Positions 28,546-53,265 of a stretch of 64,000 nucleotides of DNA are shown here, in pieces; position 1 is the stretch's first letter, and each line of letters begins with the position of its first letter. The notes beneath the pieces were generated by a model. The model was not told where the DNA came from. It did not search any database and was given only the letters and a program-made list of their open reading frames with translations. The stretch covers positions 96,001 through 160,000 of the IMG/VR virus record IMGVR_UViG_3300035188_001379, one strand, 5' to 3'. The stretch is from a virus. The position numbers were made by a program, and so were the translations under genes.

Positions 28546-28597
28546 TCTTGGGTACCCCCCCGGTATATCTCAAGCATCTTGAGGTATATTATTATAG

Positions 28598-28933
28598 ATG
28601 AGAGCAACTAGCCCATCAATATACAAGCCTGTCAGTCAGGCAACCAGCAGAGTTGAATCTGCTTTGCGGGTCGAAGTAACACTTCAAGCAGGCATAGTCA
28701 CGCAAGTGGTTGTTGCCTCGCAAGATTTTCCTGTAGGGCCAGACGACCTCTGGTTTGAGGAAAACATTTCATTGAAAAATGCGGTATTCAATGAATCTCT
28801 CTTGGTAAGTCGTATCAGTACCGAACAGTATAGAAAGCTCATACGCTTGGTATACAGCTCGGACGAGATATTGTATGGCGACGGACCAACAGTGAACAGA
28901 GAGAACACTGAAGTAACCTTGGAGGTCTTCTAG
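28598..28933 (+). CDS. hypothetical protein, possibly leaderless
   Basis: GAGGTATATT 7 nt upstream of the ATG; single-gene cassette. Confidence 0.6.
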   Translation: MRATSPSIYKPVSQATSRVESALRVEVTLQAGIVTQVVVASQDFPVGPDDLWFEENISLKNAVFNESLLVSRISTEQYRKLIRLVYSSDEILYGDGPTVNRENTEVTLEVF

Positions 28934-28939
28934 ACCTGA

Positions 28940-28978
28940 GCGCGCTCCCTTTGAGGGAGGTAAGCCGCTTTTTTTAGC
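28940..28978 (+). terminator. hairpin + T-tract-AGC
   Basis: CTCCCT-TTG-AGGGAG core with GCG flanks, T7, AGC. Confidence 0.6.
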
Positions 28979-29028
28979 ATATACCCCCACCCCTCTCCCC
29001 TACCCCCCTCCCTAAAACCTAGATACTC

Positions 29029-29485: not shown

Positions 29486-29527
29486 AAACCCCACCCCAAT
29501 CTGGGGGTGGGCGGATCTTTTTTTAGC
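29486..29527 (+). terminator. GC-rich hairpin + GGATC-T7-AGC (near copy at 30917)
   Basis: AAACCCCACCCCAATCTGGGGGTGGGCGGATCTTTTTTTAGC. Confidence 0.75.
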
Positions 29528-29559
29528 TAGCAGCCCTTTTAAAAAAACATACATATTTG

Positions 29560-29568
29560 TGGTATAAT
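29560..29568 (+). promoter_or_regulatory. extended -10 promoter driving the ncRNA candidate
   Basis: TGGTATAAT. Confidence 0.7.
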
Positions 29569-29574
29569 ATTTTG

Positions 29575-30035
29575 AATAGAAATTTATAGCATATAGCTAT
29601 AGGCTACTGTTCCAAGCATGCTAAGAAAGTATGCAGTGAGTCACGACTAAACAGGGCTAACTATGCTGAGAATAGTATAAGGTTCGATCTGCCAAAGAGG
29701 TCCGAAGTATGCTATGATAGTATACAGCCTTGGGATACAGGCCAAAGTCGAATAACACATATCCCCAAAAGCATGCTATGTAAGTATGCAGTACGGTTCA
29801 CCGCTAAACGGGAGCAGTCTAGGAGTAAAGACTCAGCAGTGTATATTCGCAATTTAGAATATACAAAACTGCTACTCACTGCGCTATACAGCGAAAATAG
29901 CCCGATCGCTTGGAGAGGCGGAATGGCGTGGCACACACGTCTAAATACAAGTGTGTAGACTAGTGGACAGTCTGGAGTCCGTCCACTGACGAAGCAGGCT
30001 CTCGTCATGTCATATATAACAAATAGTTATATATG
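29575..30035 (+). ncRNA. large structured non-coding RNA candidate
   Basis: About 460 nt without a credible ORF in an otherwise gene-dense genome; own promoter; many hairpins, a thrice-repeated hairpin motif and three long-range helices. Confidence 0.6.
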
Positions 30036-30446
30036 ATAAAACCTGCAGCTTTTCATATGAAACCCATGAAACAGGAGAGAGTCAGAGTAGTACTTCCTTA
30101 CCTAGAAGGCTATCTTCTAGAAAGGTTAAGCAACCCAAGATGGCCTATGAACATGGGTAAAACCAGACATGTAGGCGGAGGAATAGAGAACAATGAAACC
30201 CCAGAACAGGCAGCAAGCAGAGAGCTGTTTGAGGAGCTCGGAGTAACTATACCTCCAGCTTCTTTTGAGAAACTTGGTTCCCACGAGAATCAACACTATT
30301 TGATCGTGAAAGATCATGGTCTTGTTCCTGGTGTGTATAAAGCATCTGTAGGCTCAGATGAGTATATACATCTTGTAGCAGGAGATCTCAAGGAAGCTCA
30401 GTATATCGGCCCTAGACTAGAAACCCTAACCCAACCCACACAATGA
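30033..30446 (+). CDS. Nudix hydrolase
   Basis: GGGIENNETPEQAASRELFEELG = Nudix box. Confidence 0.9.
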   Translation: MIKPAAFHMKPMKQERVRVVLPYLEGYLLERLSNPRWPMNMGKTRHVGGGIENNETPEQAASRELFEELGVTIPPASFEKLGSHENQHYLIVKDHGLVPGVYKASVGSDEYIHLVAGDLKEAQYIGPRLETLTQPTQ

Positions 30447-31594: not shown

Positions 31595-33703
31595 ATGAAC
31601 TACAACACACCTATTAGAGACGTTTCAAACCCTGTGATTAACGCAGGGCTTGAAGCTTTATTTGGCAAGAATCTTATTCCTTCAAGGCTTGAAGGAGAAG
31701 ACATGATAGACGCTCTTAATAGGCGAGATCGTACACTAGCTTTTAGAGAGAGTGCTGCAAACAATTTTGCAGATAATCCAATTGTTAGCCGCCTAGGTGA
31801 AAAAGGGTCTAAAGCCTTGGGTAAAATGGACGCACTCTCCGGGGGCAAGCTCAGCGGTTTCTTGAGTCCTATGCTTGGCGGTAACACATATAAGGCTACA
31901 GAAAATGTGCATAACATGCTGCACAATCCTGCAGCTATGAGTGCTTTTGGTGGAGGAAATCACAATTCCGAGAATATTATGAAGGCATTACACAAGAACT
32001 TCTATAAGCATGCCGAGAATGCTTCTTTAGCGGGTAGCTATATTAATCAGAACATAGGAGAGCTACCAACCATCAAAGAACCGGAGAGTATTTCTTTTAC
32101 ACCTGTAGACAATGGTAAGAAAGTAGGGATGGGCTCAGGCTCTAGCACTTTTGCTGGAAAAACACCAGTACAACATGCTGAGCACTATCCTAGTCGCAGT
32201 GCAGATAAAGCTATCCCAAGAAAGTCTGGTAAAGCCACAATCTCAAAAATACCTATGGGACGTATGCCTGCAGCTATGAGTAAAATGGCTCTAGATGATA
32301 AGAGTGACACACACACCTATAGAATGGAAGGTAACGTGCAAGGAGTAGGTTTGCGTAAAGCTCTACATAAAATACTTGAGGAAAATAGACTCAATGGGCT
32401 TGCTGTGAACTATCCAGAAACAAACGAGGTATATGCTACCATACAAGGAAGGAAAAAGAGGATAGATCAGATTCTTGATGAGCTTAAGGCCCGTCTGGCG
32501 GTGAGAGAAAAAAAGCCTCTGGCTTACGGAACAGACTATAGCATCGAGCACGCTCCAGCCATGAAGGAAAGGATGCGTAGGGTTGTATTTACTCCAAAAG
32601 ATATAGAGGTGTTTGAGCAAAACAATCCTGAGCTCGATAAATTCAAAACAGTAGATCTAGAGAATAAACTCAAATATTTTGAAGACCGCTATAGGCTACA
32701 TAGAGACGCTCGAGGGAAGTTGAGAGGCAGTCTGCCCAATAAAGCCATAGACCAGTTGTTTAATGGTGCTCCTGTGTATCACAGACAGGTATTAGCGCGT
32801 AACGAGAATAACGAGAAAGCTGCGTTCTTTACAGGCTTTCTCAAAAGAGCTGCAGAACATGGCTTTAGCCGCGAGGACACTGTAAAGCTTGCTGCTACAT
32901 ATAAAGAAGCAGTGGCACTTTCAGGAATAGGGAAAGCTTTCGGCACAAAAATGATGCCAAAAATATTTAACATGGCTCGCGGAGCTTTTGGCAGTCTTCG
33001 TTCACTAGGTTCTAGTGTACCTGAGGGGCCTCTACACACTGAAAGAAATGCAGCGTTAGAAGCGGGAAACAAGTTTATTGAAAACTTCAAACCTGAAGGT
33101 TTTCGTATGTACGCAGGTCGAGTAAAAACACCTGAGAGTCTTGCTGGGCATGGAGGAGGGGTTACAAACGACTTGCTAGGTATTAGAATGAGGCCTAGCA
33201 AGGGAGGCTATACTCAGGAAAGCGCAGACAACCTTGTAAATCAATTAAGACAGGCAGGGGTAAATGTAAGTGGGCAGAAAAAACTTGTAAGACCTGGGTA
33301 TCACGGCTGGAACATAAAAGGAACATTGCCTCACGCTACTGGGGATGTACCTATCGAAGTGCAGATGACTCCGAGAAGAATGCAGGGCATATTTGCAGCG
33401 AACCATGCGTATGTATACAAGCCAGAAACATCTGGAGTCTCTCCAGCGGTATCAAAGGGCATCTATGACCCAGCATTAAACTATGTGACAAACGTGCTTT
33501 CACCGATGAGTAGCCCAGCCAAGAGAATAGGTTATGGTGCTGCCGGGGTAGGTGCGCTAGGTACAATGGGCGGTGTTGGCTATAACGCTGTAAAAGGACC
33601 AAATAACGCAGCGCAAAACAATGGAGAAGCCTTCAATAGTCAGGCTATATATGATAGAGTTCAGACTAGTCCCGCTAGCTATCTAGCTCAGCAAACAAGA
33701 TAA
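31595..33703 (+). CDS. modular protein: acylphosphatase-like + GFxKRA module + RelA/SpoT-like domain
   Basis: EGNVQGVGLR (acylphosphatase); GRVKTPESL, DLLGIR, GYHG, EVQM, H...YK (RelA_SpoT synthetase motifs). Confidence 0.75.
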   Translation: MNYNTPIRDVSNPVINAGLEALFGKNLIPSRLEGEDMIDALNRRDRTLAFRESAANNFADNPIVSRLGEKGSKALGKMDALSGGKLSGFLSPMLGGNTYKATENVHNMLHNPAAMSAFGGGNHNSENIMKALHKNFYKHAENASLAGSYINQNIGELPTIKEPESISFTPVDNGKKVGMGSGSSTFAGKTPVQHAEHYPSRSADKAIPRKSGKATISKIPMGRMPAAMSKMALDDKSDTHTYRMEGNVQGVGLRKALHKILEENRLNGLAVNYPETNEVYATIQGRKKRIDQILDELKARLAVREKKPLAYGTDYSIEHAPAMKERMRRVVFTPKDIEVFEQNNPELDKFKTVDLENKLKYFEDRYRLHRDARGKLRGSLPNKAIDQLFNGAPVYHRQVLARNENNEKAAFFTGFLKRAAEHGFSREDTVKLAATYKEAVALSGIGKAFGTKMMPKIFNMARGAFGSLRSLGSSVPEGPLHTERNAALEAGNKFIENFKPEGFRMYAGRVKTPESLAGHGGGVTNDLLGIRMRPSKGGYTQESADNLVNQLRQAGVNVSGQKKLVRPGYHGWNIKGTLPHATGDVPIEVQMTPRRMQGIFAANHAYVYKPETSGVSPAVSKGIYDPALNYVTNVLSPMSSPAKRIGYGAAGVGALGTMGGVGYNAVKGPNNAAQNNGEAFNSQAIYDRVQTSPASYLAQQTR

Positions 33704-33710
33704 TTTAAGC

Positions 33711-36700
33711 ATGAATAAAATTGGAGATAACGCAGAAGCCTCAGCACAACCGTTTGCAGGTAGAACTCAGCCGTTTGCTAATAGTGAGATATCTGCAGAA
33801 AGCGCAGCAATAAACACGAATAGGAGCATTCAGCCGGGTACAGGGGCCATAGCTGACTCTGCTCCTAGTGTTTCTTCTAGAAGTTTAAAAAAAACTCCAG
33901 GAGTTAACACTAATATCACAACTCCTCCGCCTAGAATTCCTGAAGCTCAACAAAAAGCCTCTCCTGCTGGCGCTGTGGGTGCCGCTGGAGGAGTTGTGTC
34001 TGCTTTTGGCAGACGAGGAGGTGTAATAGGTGCTGCAACTAATCTTGCTTCTGAAGATGTGCCTGGCGCTGTATCTAACGTAGCAAGAGCTGTGAGCCCA
34101 AAATTGAATGTATTTTCTAGAGCATTAGACGCAGGCAAAAAACTGATTAAAGGCAATCCTGTAGGTGCAGGACTTGAGATGGCAGGAGCTGTAGTGCCTG
34201 TTGTGCCTGATCTAATAAATACAGGAAAAGATTTCATAAATCAGATCGACGAGCAAGCAGAACAGAATAGGCAATTTAATAAGAGAAACAGAGAGGTGCG
34301 TGGAAGTCTAGAGGCGCGTAATACTGGGATAGCTGATGTGGACGGCAATATCTTTGTGAACACCAATGACGCTGTGCTTCTAGATAAATTAGGCTTTGAG
34401 GTTGCAGATTACGATCTGCTGGAGAAGACGAGCGAGGTGCTAGACCTATACTCGTATATCGAGAAAGTGGCAGAAGTTCCTAGAGAAGTAGCTAAGCTCA
34501 TAGACGAAGGCAAAGCGTTCAGTGCTGAGTATCTTAAGGAAATGGAGTATAACGTACCAAAAGGCTACGAAGTAAAAGGTGACCTATGTTGTCCTTCTGA
34601 GAAGACTGAAAAGGAGAAAAAGCGTCTCTCTGAGAAGACTGCTTCAATTCAAAAACAAGCTGTAAACTTTGGGCAGATAGCAAAGGCTATAGGTGCAGGT
34701 GTAAACAAAATTGCTCCAACTGTGGCAAATGCAGTGCACAGTGCTGCTCCTGCTGCTGCAAAACAAAAAGCAATTGTTAAGCAATTTCAAGACCCATCTA
34801 AAATAGGATTTAAAAGCGTATATCCTACCGAGCCAGTTATGCCTGCAGGCACAAATCCAAAAAAGTGGAGAGCAGATGTAGCTGAGGGGATGCAGCAACA
34901 CCAAACTCTAAGCAGAATAAGACAAGACTCTTCTGGACACCAAGCCGCTTTTAGTTTCAATGCTCCGAATTCGTCGGGGGTAGATGAATTGCATAATGTC
35001 TGGGTGCATCCTGAAATGATACATACAAATCAGCAAGGTAAAGGGCTTGCAGCTCATGACAGACAGCTTGTCAATGCACTCATTGAGAACACTCAAACGG
35101 GGCAGAAATGGGCACAGCCAATGTACAGGTCTACCGGCACGAATAGTGAGCATACAGTAGGACAGTGGCTACCAACCAGAGGATTTGGTGCACCTAGTGA
35201 AGACTGGGTTAACGCAGTAAAAACAAAAATAAATCCAGAATTTGAAATGCCTCAACCGGTACCTGGAGTTTTACCGCAATTTGTAGGACCCAGCAATCAA
35301 GGGCCAGGAGGATTAAAAGGGCCAGGTTGGCTTGGTAAATATCAATTTAATCCTAGCACACAACAGTGGATGGTGCATGACAAAACAGACGCAGGAGTTA
35401 ACGCTCTTATGCCTGTATATCAAAGATTGCGTGAAGCAATGGGAGAGTATATGGGAAATATTGGGCTAGCTAAGCAAGGATCTGAGAAGTCTGCTTCTGA
35501 AAGTAAGCCTGGGCTATGGGCAAATATTCATGCAAAGAGAAAGCGTGGAGAGAAAGCTGCTAAACCTGGAGATGAGGATTACCCAGATAAGAAGCAATGG
35601 GATAAATTGAGTAAAAAAGGAGAAGCCGATCCAGAACAGTCTATATTGATCTCAGGTCACAGTGGTGCAGGAAAGAGTACGCTCGCGAAAGAACTATCTA
35701 AATTACTAGATATGAATCTACGTAGGGTAGATGCACACAAAGGATTTAGTGACTATGTTAAAAAAGACCACGAACACTGGGAAAAGTCATTGTCTGCTGG
35801 AACAAAAGAGTACGAGAGGTTTAATAAAATTATAAATAACGCTAATAGACACGTGCTGAGAAATGCTCCAGAGGCTTCAATTATCGAAGGCACTCAACTA
35901 GGTCATCTTTCTCCAGAAGAACTCAGCAAGTTCAAGGCACACATTCTGGTAGGAGGTACTCCAGAACAGTCTATAATGCAAAGAATAGCTAGAAGCGCAA
36001 AAAAGAAAGGTGTCGAGTTCTCTCCAGAAGAAATTGAAGCTAGGAGAATAAAGGCAAAGAAAGTGGTAGACTTCTGGGAGCCTGGTATTGAAAAGTTCAG
36101 AAAGCTGCCAGGGACGCTGCAATATAATCACACAGAGCATGAGGTGGAGCCTTTGGTAGAACAACTGCGTGCACTAATGAGCAAGCAGGCAGCATCTGCA
36201 GCATGGCAGCGCAGTGAAGGCAAGAATCCTGAAGGTGGATTAAACGCTAAGGGCAGGGCTAGCTATAAGAAGCAAACAGGAGGCACCCTCAAAGCTCCAG
36301 TAACAGAGAGTAACCCGTCTGGTGAAAGGGCTAAGCGTCAGAATAGCTTCTGTAGTCGCATGTGTGGAATGAAGAGTAAGAACACGGGCAGCAAGGCTCA
36401 GAGCGATCCAGATAGCCGCATCAACAAATCGTTACGTAAGTGGAACTGTAAGTGTGGCGAAGATCACAGTTCATTGTTCGAGAAAATAGCCTGTAACTTT
36501 AAAGAAGCTAAGAGTAGGTGCTGGGAAGGCTATGAGCCTGTTCCTGGTAAAGATCCTTATAGTGAAGACAGTTGCAGACCTAAGGGCAAAAAGAAAAAGA
36601 TAGAAAAGAATGCCTCTACCGCTTGGAAAAAGAGACTTCGCACAGGTAAGCTGAGCGTCGATGGAGTTAACGCGATACTGCGAAGTAGTGGGCTGAGTTC

Positions 36701-37637
36701 AACTATGTCGCCTGAAAGTTGGCACAAGAGTCTTTCCGATCCTAGGTATTCTAAGGGAATACTGTATGGGCATAGAGAGAGAGGAAAATCGGAAAATGTA
36801 TTTAATCGTAAATATACCGTGCAACCTTTTAGTGAACAAGAACATTTGGATCGTCTTGCGCGAACCAACTTAGGCTCTCTAGCTAGGGAGGCGGCATGGA
36901 GGCATCCGGATAGTATATATCCCTACTATAAAGCTCATATGATGGATACTCGTGCAGGACAGGATGCTCAAGCAGTAAAAGAAACAATTAATGAACTATC
37001 GTATGATTCTAAGCAAAAGCGTTATATGCGAATTCTTCAAAAAATGTACGATAAAAGAGAGAAAATGCCCACTAGCCGTAAAAAATTTTTAAGCGATTCT
37101 TCTGACTACCCTAGAGAAAACTGGCGCGGCATGTCTCTACAGCAAGCAAACGACTTGCTCGACAGTGCTGGGCAAACTGGGAATCATGGTCCGCAGGCAG
37201 TTCCAGACTTAAATACGATTGCTGGTCCTGTGGGTGTAGGGCAGCCAATCACCAGGCATGAGATTTCTCATCTAGTGGATCGTAATATGCCACAAGCTCA
37301 ACGGCTAGCTGTTTTGAAAGAACTGCACCAAACACTTAAAAGAAATCCTGAAGTTATGCGAGGTATACTTAGATATAAAGATCCGACCAAGGCTATATCT
37401 GAGTCTTTTGCGCAATTGATAGGTAGCAGAGGCAATTCAAATTCAGCGAAAAGGTTTATTGACTCATATGTTGACGCTGCAAAAAATTCAAAAATATGGG
37501 ATATGCAGCAAATACTTCCTAAATTACTTGAACGTGATCCTTCTGGGCGAGACGCTGCCGTTGTTTCTCAGTTGATAAGAAGATACGGCCTTAGGTTACC
37601 TGATTACGCGCGACACCAAGGCGCTCTACCTCTATGA
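33711..37637 (+). CDS. 1308-aa multi-module protein (P-loop kinase-like, small cyanophage-type domains, zincin-like domain)
   Basis: GHSGAGKST; GLWANIHAKRKRG; AAWQRSEGKNPEGGLNAKGRASY; CWEGYEPVPGK; RHEISH; modules joined by K-x-A motifs. Confidence 0.75.
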   Translation: MNKIGDNAEASAQPFAGRTQPFANSEISAESAAINTNRSIQPGTGAIADSAPSVSSRSLKKTPGVNTNITTPPPRIPEAQQKASPAGAVGAAGGVVSAFGRRGGVIGAATNLASEDVPGAVSNVARAVSPKLNVFSRALDAGKKLIKGNPVGAGLEMAGAVVPVVPDLINTGKDFINQIDEQAEQNRQFNKRNREVRGSLEARNTGIADVDGNIFVNTNDAVLLDKLGFEVADYDLLEKTSEVLDLYSYIEKVAEVPREVAKLIDEGKAFSAEYLKEMEYNVPKGYEVKGDLCCPSEKTEKEKKRLSEKTASIQKQAVNFGQIAKAIGAGVNKIAPTVANAVHSAAPAAAKQKAIVKQFQDPSKIGFKSVYPTEPVMPAGTNPKKWRADVAEGMQQHQTLSRIRQDSSGHQAAFSFNAPNSSGVDELHNVWVHPEMIHTNQQGKGLAAHDRQLVNALIENTQTGQKWAQPMYRSTGTNSEHTVGQWLPTRGFGAPSEDWVNAVKTKINPEFEMPQPVPGVLPQFVGPSNQGPGGLKGPGWLGKYQFNPSTQQWMVHDKTDAGVNALMPVYQRLREAMGEYMGNIGLAKQGSEKSASESKPGLWANIHAKRKRGEKAAKPGDEDYPDKKQWDKLSKKGEADPEQSILISGHSGAGKSTLAKELSKLLDMNLRRVDAHKGFSDYVKKDHEHWEKSLSAGTKEYERFNKIINNANRHVLRNAPEASIIEGTQLGHLSPEELSKFKAHILVGGTPEQSIMQRIARSAKKKGVEFSPEEIEARRIKAKKVVDFWEPGIEKFRKLPGTLQYNHTEHEVEPLVEQLRALMSKQAASAAWQRSEGKNPEGGLNAKGRASYKKQTGGTLKAPVTESNPSGERAKRQNSFCSRMCGMKSKNTGSKAQSDPDSRINKSLRKWNCKCGEDHSSLFEKIACNFKEAKSRCWEGYEPVPGKDPYSEDSCRPKGKKKKIEKNASTAWKKRLRTGKLSVDGVNAILRSSGLSSTMSPESWHKSLSDPRYSKGILYGHRERGKSENVFNRKYTVQPFSEQEHLDRLARTNLGSLAREAAWRHPDSIYPYYKAHMMDTRAGQDAQAVKETINELSYDSKQKRYMRILQKMYDKREKMPTSRKKFLSDSSDYPRENWRGMSLQQANDLLDSAGQTGNHGPQAVPDLNTIAGPVGVGQPITRHEISHLVDRNMPQAQRLAVLKELHQTLKRNPEVMRGILRYKDPTKAISESFAQLIGSRGNSNSAKRFIDSYVDAAKNSKIWDMQQILPKLLERDPSGRDAAVVSQLIRRYGLRLPDYARHQGALPL

Positions 37638-51723: not shown

Positions 51724-53265
51724 ATGAAAGATACAACAGGATTATTACCGTTTCAATGGCCAGGTACATGGTTAGCTTCAGGCAACTCGCCTATCGTTTT
51801 AGACTCTGATATCAGAGGTACACTACAAAGTATTGCCGGAGGAAGCACAGAAAAGCTCACTTCTCTGTCAGGCACAAGACTCAGTGAAGGGATGCTTGTT
51901 TATGTCAAAGAGTCGTACACTGCGTCTGAACCAGGGGCGACTCCAAGCGATCCACAGGTACAATATGCAAGAGAGGGAGGGCAATATTACCAATATCGTG
52001 CTGGCGGAGCTACGAGAGATGCTAACGGTGCGTTCCCTAACAATTCTGAGTCTTACTGGCACGTTTTAGGTCTTGCTGGCGACAAGGGAGACCCTGGAGT
52101 TTCTTCGAGCATCTACAAGTATAAGGCAGAGACAACGGCTACTTTTGACGCTGACGACGCGACAAAGATTCCAGGTGCTGCGCAGATCATGTGGAGCAGT
52201 GCGGGACCCAACCAGAAGAGCGCAGAGTACATTTATGTGTCTCACAAGACAAGCGATACGCTTGATATCGATAACTTCCTCAGCTTGTTGCAAGCTACGC
52301 AACCTATCCTCATTCAGAACGCTACAAATAGCGAAAGCTACCAGAAGTTTACTATCACAGGGGCACCCACCAGAGTAGTTAAACCAAACGGAGCTAGCTC
52401 AATCGTCTATTGGAGTATTCCTGTCGAAGAAACCTCAAGCTCAGGTTTAGCGGCTACAGCGGGTTTCAGTGACGAAGACGACATTTTGCTTGTTGTCGTT
52501 TCTGGTGCAAGAGGCGAGCAAGGCCCTCAGGGAGAATCGGCAACTATTGTTGGAAAGACAAGGAACACTTTGTTTACAACTGAGCTTGTCGATGCAAATG
52601 ATCCGACGCAGGGAGTTAAGAAAGAATACGGCCCCTTGACAGGCTGGACGGCTAACGACCATGAGGCTTTTATTGTTAAGCTTGGCGGCGTCATTCTTAC
52701 AGGCGGCACTGACAAAACAGGAGCTAACGCAAAAGGCTATGTAATCGAAGGTACTACACAACAGTCTAGTAAGGTTGTACTGACCGAAGAGCCTAGTGTA
52801 GGCTATGAGCTTGAAGTGCGGGCTATCTCTGTAGGTGCGGCTGCTACCACTTTGAGTGGTACGCTTTCTTCACCTATTCGTGAAGTGGCCAAAACAGATA
52901 TCAATGTAATTCCTGCAGAAACTCGTCTCGATCTCGGATTACAGCAGGTCTATCTGTACCCTGGAGACGCACCAGCTCTTTTCAGCCTCAACCTTAAGCA
53001 CACCGAGAGCAACAACTTAAATGCTTTGATGCAGATCGGTGAAGCTATCGGAGCTACCGTTATGGTGGGAGCAGGCACTACAGGCACTCTTCCTGCGTTA
53101 GGAAACGTGCAGATTGATGGAGTCACACAAGCAGTTAAATGGGTTAACAGCACAAAGACTCTTACAGCCGGCAAGTTGAACATCATCAGCCTCACAGTAA
53201 TCAAGACAGCAAATGACGCATTCACTGTTGTTGGTTCTGTTGTTGCTGCTGGAACTCCTGCCTAA
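51724..53265 (+). CDS. tail-fibre-like protein
   Basis: Short collagen-like GDKGDPG and GEQGPQG; GMLVYV...YQY module; C-terminal Gp10-like W......T...LNIISLTVIK domain. Confidence 0.6.
   Translation: MKDTTGLLPFQWPGTWLASGNSPIVLDSDIRGTLQSIAGGSTEKLTSLSGTRLSEGMLVYVKESYTASEPGATPSDPQVQYAREGGQYYQYRAGGATRDANGAFPNNSESYWHVLGLAGDKGDPGVSSSIYKYKAETTATFDADDATKIPGAAQIMWSSAGPNQKSAEYIYVSHKTSDTLDIDNFLSLLQATQPILIQNATNSESYQKFTITGAPTRVVKPNGASSIVYWSIPVEETSSSGLAATAGFSDEDDILLVVVSGARGEQGPQGESATIVGKTRNTLFTTELVDANDPTQGVKKEYGPLTGWTANDHEAFIVKLGGVILTGGTDKTGANAKGYVIEGTTQQSSKVVLTEEPSVGYELEVRAISVGAAATTLSGTLSSPIREVAKTDINVIPAETRLDLGLQQVYLYPGDAPALFSLNLKHTESNNLNALMQIGEAIGATVMVGAGTTGTLPALGNVQIDGVTQAVKWVNSTKTLTAGKLNIISLTVIKTANDAFTVVGSVVAAGTPA

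Follow-up and report, generated by a model that had tools for sequence, protein, structure and literature searches.

A modular structured RNA adjoining a NUDIX gene in uncultivated freshwater phages

Introduction

What occupies the 561 nt that public gene callers left empty between a 79-aa gene and a NUDIX hydrolase gene of an uncultivated phage and, if it is an RNA, does it act in its own right or as the leader of the gene that follows it? The question arises from a stretch of 64,000 nt (hereafter, the window), which comprises bases 96001-160000 of a 184,465-bp IMG/VR phage record with an estimated completeness of 94%. A preliminary description of the window considered this region its longest ORF-free stretch; it is the largest between-gene gap in the plus-strand part of the window, but two mechanical ORFs overlap it, one of 98 aa on the minus strand and one of 61 aa on the plus strand.

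No cultured phage is closely related to this one, whose DNA ligase is at most 37% identical to any protein from 50,697 phage records. At least three further public assemblies contain the same phage, with 100% identity across 1.5-1.8 kb, and contigs L082 and L083 do not differ from the window and add no variation. JGI 3300059473, SRR3987663 and ERZ27271712 are data sets in which it occurs. The locus lies within a series of small plus-strand genes split into units by terminators and promoters, and there are three tRNA genes 2.2-3.4 kb 5′ of it, in agreement with the tRNAs noticed upstream in the preliminary description. On the other side, the 702-aa product of the gene at window 31595-33703 contains an acylphosphatase-like domain, and the 1308-aa product of the gene at 33711-37637 contains AAA and DUF6321 domains.

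Results

Three phage lineages carry the RNA next to the same NUDIX gene

Direct DNA searches yielded no homologues and the search therefore went through the neighboring NUDIX gene, whose relatives in a collection of 5.8 billion proteins are 54-67% identical. By this route, the RNA was found in three phage lineages: that of the window; a second one (the P0005 cluster, with contigs L007, L084 and L085; hereafter the L007 lineage), in which the terminator tail, the promoter and the 5′ hairpin all recur, followed by an RNA of ca. 390 nt directly 5′ of the NUDIX gene; and a third one (the P0002 cluster, with the 764-bp contig L174), with a form of the RNA that is truncated at its 5′ end. In 3/3 lineages the RNA is situated immediately 5′ of the same NUDIX gene. 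The carriers are a few uncultivated freshwater phages, known from metagenome contigs.

There are also relatives that have the NUDIX gene and lack the RNA (L003/L004, L005/L006, L008-L011 and L078-L081); a covariance model of the RNA core, R1, found nothing in them and recognized a single locus in the phage's own genome. A metagenome scan with the NUDIX alignment retrieved four true relatives, L008-L011, none of them with the RNA. No homologue of the RNA was found by blastn against the 50,697 phage records or by five exact-pattern scans of IMG/VR; the 11 matches from the final scan were due to chance and were rejected by model R1, and the 88 matches from a pattern scan of GTDB genomes, four of them in a picocyanobacterial coding gene, were likewise due to chance. 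Peptide-based scans with the NUDIX, the upstream 79-aa protein and a 438-aa protein did not identify further RNA homologues, and in protein searches the 98-aa ORF, which stood in for the DNA, and the 79-aa protein each matched only itself.

One candidate homologue, at L003:6690-7140 (plus strand) of a related 190-kb contig, was discarded, as it has only the promoter and some 25 nt in common with the RNA. This ca. 440-nt non-coding stretch, identical in L004, is situated 1.3 kb 3′ of the NUDIX gene of that contig, with a promoter on one side and a terminator on the other, folds with a z-score of -6.3 and has no Rfam match. It could represent another new phage RNA.

The RNA has its own predicted promoter and a terminator-like 3′ end

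The motif TGGTATAAT, reported previously at 29560-68, is indeed found directly upstream of the RNA, with a terminator (29490-29511) and T run just 5′, and is part of a promoter (Table 1) that is invariant across L007, L084 and L085. A strict form of this promoter, consisting of TTTGGTATAAT and a 6-nt spacer with a TTG end, followed by an A, occurs at eight sites in the genome. At two of them, 125029 and 165843, the 6-nt spacer runs straight into the ATG of a sizeable ORF, suggesting that the corresponding messages are leaderless, and two other copies precede the phage tmRNA (G000 52179-52609) and a tRNA-Met. Since the promoter of the RNA has the same 6-nt spacer geometry as the leaderless promoters, the transcript should start at A 29575. 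The tmRNA, identified with ARAGORN, encodes a tag peptide that, at 30 residues, is unusually long and has ALAA at its end.

The 3′ end had been placed at 30035 in the preliminary description; we situate it instead at around 30054, after a terminator-like helix and a U tract (Table 1), and segment 29988-30056 folds with a z-score of -5.9. The homologous helix of L174 is directly followed by U7. The helix and U tract probably constitute a terminator, which a terminator scanner did not call in either the window or L174. From these sequence predictions we infer that a dedicated extended -10 promoter of the sigma-70 type drives transcription of the RNA, as well as the position of both ends and termination.

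Table 1. Position of the features of the RNA locus. Coordinates refer to the window, except for those of the strict promoter sites, which refer to the complete record (G000).
Feature	Coordinates	Strand	Description
Intrinsic terminator of upstream unit	29490-29524	+	Hairpin and T run, final letters AGC; tail and spacer kept in L007, L084 and L085
Putative promoter	29539-29568	+	-35-like hexamer, 18-nt spacer, extended -10 TGGTATAAT; 10/12 consensus matches, TG present
Strict promoter sites (eight)	52028, 52109, 111856, 122156, 123617, 125029, 125560, 165843 (G000)
Whole structured non-coding RNA	29575-30054	+	ca. 480 nt
P1, 5′ hairpin	29583-29603	+	Minimum-energy fold; in L007, L084 and L085 with sequence changes
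Modules 1-3	29616-29765	+	H1 29616-34, S1 29639-58; H2 29662-79, S2 29686-702; H3 29707-25, S3 29732-65
Module 4	29771-29815	+	Common to all lineages; H4 29771-89; S4 29796-815, loop with CYAAA
Junction-closing helix	29792-95 with 29927-30	+	4 bp, closes core junction; weakly supported
P5 hairpin	29816-29833	+	AGUCU/AGACU; changes confined to the loop
P6 hairpin	29835-29873	+	Length and sequence differ in every lineage, still paired; stem base covaries
Joining segment	29874-29882	+	Conserved; can pair with 29632-41 in the window phage alone
Ha	29883-901	+	Two adjacent pairs switch together, A-U/U-A to G-C/C-G
Hb	29902-26	+	GGAG loop; one double change
Hc hairpin	29931-29956	+	Invariant 12-nt loop motif; in L174, stem of different sequence, then U7 (read from the sequences)
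3′ extension	29962-30038	+	Hd 29962-87, He 29988-30006, Hf 30008-38 (13-bp A/U-rich hairpin); absent from L174
Terminator-like 3′ end	29994-30053	+	GCAGG 29994-98 pairs with CCUGC 30042-46 around Hf; U tract 30050-53
NUDIX hydrolase gene	30057-30446	+	Start at 30057 or 30066, not at the called 30033; conserved downstream neighbor

The RNA is built from repeated two-hairpin modules and a conserved core

From 5′ to 3′, the RNA comprises a 5′ hairpin, one to four modules of two hairpins each, a multi-helix core, an optional 3′ extension, the terminator-like helix and the U tract. The three copies of a 24-nt hairpin motif reported previously at 29614, 29705 and 29769 were confirmed (three matches versus 0.04 expected by chance), and a fourth copy, at 29662-29679, has a 6-nt loop and fits the motif less closely. 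The first hairpin of the modules, H, has 7 bp, with the stem AUGCU/AGUAU, a fixed G-U pair and an A-rich loop of 5-6 nt; the stem sequence and the G-U pair are invariant, and the second pair of H4 is C-G or G-C depending on the lineage. The motif was not found elsewhere in the 184-kb genome. The second hairpin, S, shows a CYAAA-type motif in most copies, as read from the sequences, and two double changes occur in S4, along with several G-U switches. Model R1 detects modules 1 and 3, each as an incomplete copy of module 4.

The number of modules is four in the window phage, one in the L007 lineage, which has an unrelated 62-nt domain instead of modules 1-3, and at least modules 2-4 are present in L174. 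The preliminary description had suggested that the repeated hairpins could be protein-binding decoys. This conjecture fits with the variable number of modules (one to at least three or four) together with the conservation of the stem sequence; a comparison of the hairpin loops with known protein-binding motifs produced no match.

The RNA is more conserved than the surrounding genes and is non-coding

Identity of the RNA between lineages is 89-100%, versus 60-75% for the flanking coding DNA. L084 is syntenic with the window across 3.2 kb, and identity to it is 94% for the RNA (29873-30054), 60% for the NUDIX coding region, 75% for a 78-aa gene, 74% for a DUF3008 gene and 75% for the 702-aa gene. 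Compared to L174, modules 2-3 are identical (76/76), Ha/Hb are ca. 90% identical and the NUDIX gene is 69% identical. Within the same region, L084 has an unrelated 78-aa gene in place of the 79-aa gene that precedes the RNA, and the 111-aa gene (window 28566-28991) is replaced there (L084:759-1130) by an unrelated, GC-rich and apparently leaderless ORF of 123 aa, situated between conserved terminator-promoter units. Judging from the sequences, both replacements represent cassette exchange.

The conserved blocks of the RNA contain single-base indels, no ORF is common to the lineages across it, and in L007 and L174 the 98-aa and 61-aa ORFs of the window are interrupted or shifted in frame. The 98-aa ORF (window 29712-30008, minus strand) is present in a public protein collection as a predicted protein; with no homologue and an interrupted frame in L007, it is a spurious gene call over the RNA. 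An AUG does occur in every H hairpin, and the 61-aa ORF begins in H4, as would be expected if the locus encoded one or several small proteins from the repeated hairpins. Nevertheless, the frames that follow the AUG of H4 differ among the window, L007 and L174 by 1-nt indels in otherwise identical sequence, and the ORFs starting in the other copies end after 2-10 codons, making a coding function hardly credible. These comparisons show that window 29575-30054 (plus strand) is non-coding.

Compensatory changes support a structure on the plus strand

As anticipated in the preliminary description, the region folds better than shuffled sequences (-152.6 versus -117.5 ± 6.5 kcal/mol for the plus strand; z-score of about -5.3 to -5.4), with a z-score of -4.1 for the minus strand. 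The consensus fold of four sequences by RNAalifold reached -84.0 kcal/mol, versus -56.0 ± 5.2 kcal/mol for column-shuffled alignments (z-score of -5.3) and -75.3 for the reverse complement.

That description had also asked for homologues with compensatory changes, and those found here retain pairing through double changes. A five-sequence alignment of the core contains 58 base pairs, with 94.8% of the cells paired. Compensatory double changes occur in 10/58 of these pairs, versus 5.2 ± 1.4 in shuffles (0/500 reach 10) and 1-2 in slid controls, although the set includes only four distinct sequences from three lineages, so that these statistics are thin and should be considered supportive, not conclusive. 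Four of the pairs with double changes are in helices 5 and 6 of the core alignment (P6). Some of the events may be common through recombination, in that L084 has the window version of Ha.

One-sided stem changes turn A-U or G-C into G-U on the plus strand only, and this includes 3/3 substitutions in the stems of the 3′ extension. This fixes the plus strand and disfavors a site that operates as double-stranded DNA. Repeated imperfect palindromes adjoining an A/T-rich hairpin and a promoter could indeed be iterons or operator repeats, or else hairpins of an origin of replication or of a packaging site that the promoter activates. But the half-sites of every repeat differ alike, by a G-T on the plus strand that would be A-C on the other strand, the one-sided substitutions yield G-U on one strand only, non-palindromic helices covary, one lineage has a single repeat, and the plus strand folds better than the minus strand. 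We thus consider a DNA-level element very improbable.

A structured spacer devoid of a specific function, such as a processing or stability element of an early transcript, would owe its identity to recent cassette recombination and not to selection. In keeping with this, the region is made of terminator-promoter cassettes exchanged among relatives, with the 79-aa and 111-aa genes replaced in L084; this contig has the window version of Ha, and a 76-nt block that is 100% identical to L174 adjoins a block of 68% identity. However, the invariant blocks of the RNA alternate with P6, S4 and the stem of Hc, which differ in all lineages yet stay paired; such a pattern is characteristic of long divergence with selection on the structure rather than of a single recent transfer, and all stem changes retain plus-strand pairing. 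A mere spacer is therefore improbable. We are highly confident that the locus specifies a real structured RNA on the plus strand; the comparisons show that its structure is under selection, and they establish its strand, its modular architecture and its position by the NUDIX gene.

The proposed long-range pseudoknot is not supported

All the complementary segments listed in the preliminary description are present in the window. Nonetheless, the pairing GGGCTA 29654-59/TAGCCC 29898-903, proposed to form a pseudoknot, overlaps Ha and Hb, which are supported by covariation, and the one substitution in it, a T to C found in both L007 and L085, covaries with the partner within Ha and not with the proposed partner. 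Similarly, TGCTGAG 29664-70/CTCAGCA 29832-38 overlaps H2, P5 and P6, all of them supported by comparative data. The 5′ partners of both pairings are in the segment that is absent from the L007 lineage. A third pairing, GCAGTGAGT/ACTCACTGC (29632-41 with 29874-83, 9-10 bp), is part of the minimum-energy fold of the window phage but has no counterpart in the L007 lineage. Because two of the three pairings clash with covarying helices, their 5′ partners are missing from the L007 lineage and the third pairing has no counterpart there, a long-range pseudoknot is not supported by the sequence comparisons.

The RNA matches no Rfam 15 family

The preliminary description considered the RNA either a member of a class of the GOLLD/ROOL type or a new class. 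Only the second option held: with the covariance models of Rfam 15, just three tRNAs pass the gathering thresholds in the whole window. For the RNA region, searches with E-values up to 10 gave scattered matches of 12-18 bits, versus thresholds of 35-127 bits; none of the homologues passes, and no weak match is common to the lineages. GOLLD, ROOL, OLE, HEARO, raiA, ykkC, group I/II introns, RNase P, 6S and tmRNA were all discarded by these thresholds. The RNA does show the general properties of structured non-coding RNAs, namely helices kept by compensatory changes and no conserved reading frame.

Stand-alone RNA or leader of the NUDIX gene

The called start of the NUDIX gene (30033) falls inside the conserved hairpin Hf, and the alignment of its relatives supports a start further downstream (Table 1); the public annotations of the NUDIX proteins of the window, P0005 and P0018 include some 8 spurious N-terminal residues. 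Comparison with solved structures gave a match limited to the Nudix box.

In the window phage and in the L007 lineage, the RNA is set apart from the NUDIX gene only by the 3′ helix and a U tract of four bases, with no promoter, and the conserved RNA sequence stops 3-6 nt short of the NUDIX ATG (3 nt if the ATG is that at 30057). The RNA of L174 concludes with the Hc helix and U7, after which come 10 bases, a TATAAT box and, exactly 6 nt further on, the NUDIX ATG, and the NUDIX gene then has its own terminator; this TATAAT-to-ATG distance is that of the leaderless messages in this phage group. The Hc helix of L174 is weak as a terminator (5 bp and an 18-nt loop, with no scanner call), and no TG extension is present at the -10 box of this contig.

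These arrangements bear on whether the RNA is a cis-acting leader or attenuator, that is, the 5′ UTR of the NUDIX operon, in which a ligand, a protein or temperature would shift the fold and control termination or access to the NUDIX start. Its location immediately 5′ of NUDIX in three lineages agrees with this, and without an intervening promoter and with a U tract of only four bases in the window phage and the L007 lineage the RNA would physically lead the NUDIX message; riboswitch expression platforms, too, usually show the order helix, U tract and gene. Moreover, riboswitches are known to target NUDIX genes, and ykkC subtype 2c, which senses nucleoside diphosphates, resembles the RNA in being directly 5′ of a NUDIX gene and ending in a helix and then a U tract (PMC7266159). 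Conversely, the RNA does not match ykkC or any other Rfam family and, with 360-480 nt, it is three to four times larger than subtype 2c and several times the size of known riboswitch aptamers. In L174, as described above, the NUDIX gene has a separate -10 box at leaderless distance after U7. Additionally, a 155-nt block of repeated modules is swapped for unrelated sequence in one lineage, which would be odd for a ligand sensor, and close NUDIX homologues work without the RNA. A leader is thus possible but doubtful.

The arrangement in L174, the use of a promoter type of stable RNAs, the size and the exchangeable and expandable array of modules favor instead a stand-alone RNA gene of a new family, which from the sequence we tentatively regard as somewhat likelier than a cis-regulatory leader.

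Discussion

How could such an RNA work? We propose that it folds into a 5′ hairpin, an array of two-hairpin modules, a conserved core and a lineage-specific 3′ extension, and that it would stop at the terminator-like helix and U tract, a few bases 5′ of NUDIX. The RNA would most likely act in its own right, and its repeated hairpins, with a conserved stem and A-rich loops, could offer several sites for one host or phage protein, as a sponge, a decoy or a scaffold. Read-through of the weak terminator would be the sole source of transcription of the NUDIX operon in this phage. This binding-platform mechanism is suggested by the architecture and by analogy with sponge RNAs and pseudo-ToxI. More speculatively, and with little confidence, the RNA could represent a new class of modular ornate phage RNA working in trans early in infection, with the modules trapping a host RNA-binding or defense protein jointly with the NUDIX enzyme, which might act, for example, on RNA 5′ ends or nucleotide signals.

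Protein-sponge RNAs of the CsrB/RsmZ type carry several copies of a small hairpin with a conserved motif per transcript, and their copy number is variable. The window RNA likewise has several copies of a hairpin, in variable number, on one predicted transcript; its loops, however, lack GGA, and the conserved part is the stem with the fixed G-U.

The succession of a promoter, repeated RNA units, a terminator-like attenuator and a protein gene is also reminiscent of type III antitoxins and pseudo-ToxI (PMC5086642; PMC3475682), and the repeat number varies between related phages; pseudo-ToxI is likewise functional only with expanded repeats (PMC3475682). The type III antitoxins are nevertheless made of near-identical tandem repeats of ca. 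34-36 nt, whereas the units of the window RNA are diverged two-hairpin modules of 45-64 nt, instead of identical 36-nt tandem repeats, that are 66-92% alike in the hairpin only, are attached to a large non-repetitive core and are reduced to a single module in one lineage. Furthermore, there is no endoribonuclease of the ToxN/CptN/TenpN type downstream, where the gene matches only the NUDIX domain. With both defining features missing, we rejected the assignment to type III antitoxin RNAs.

GOLLD, ROOL and OLE are large ornate RNAs of unknown function, for which there are cryo-EM structures (PMC12286853). The window RNA resembles them in being a large, multi-helix, phage-borne non-coding RNA, with tRNA genes 2.2 kb upstream and conserved above the neighboring genes. 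It differs from them in its smaller size (360-480 nt), in its distribution in three phage lineages only, in being partly made of repeated modules and in the lack of a match to their models at E-values up to 10. As judged from sequence, it constitutes a putative new family within the broad kind of large structured phage RNAs of unknown function, from which its modular build and its fixed NUDIX neighbor set it apart.

To our knowledge, few large structured RNAs have been described in phages, and almost none of them has a known function. The public gene calls at this locus are wrong, as they include the spurious 98-aa ORF and a NUDIX gene that is 8 codons too long at its start. The RNA described here is a compact and testable case, with clear boundaries, a number of modules that varies among lineages, a conserved protein-gene neighbor and a conservation above that of the surrounding proteins, and it appears to be needed by an uncultivated large freshwater phage.
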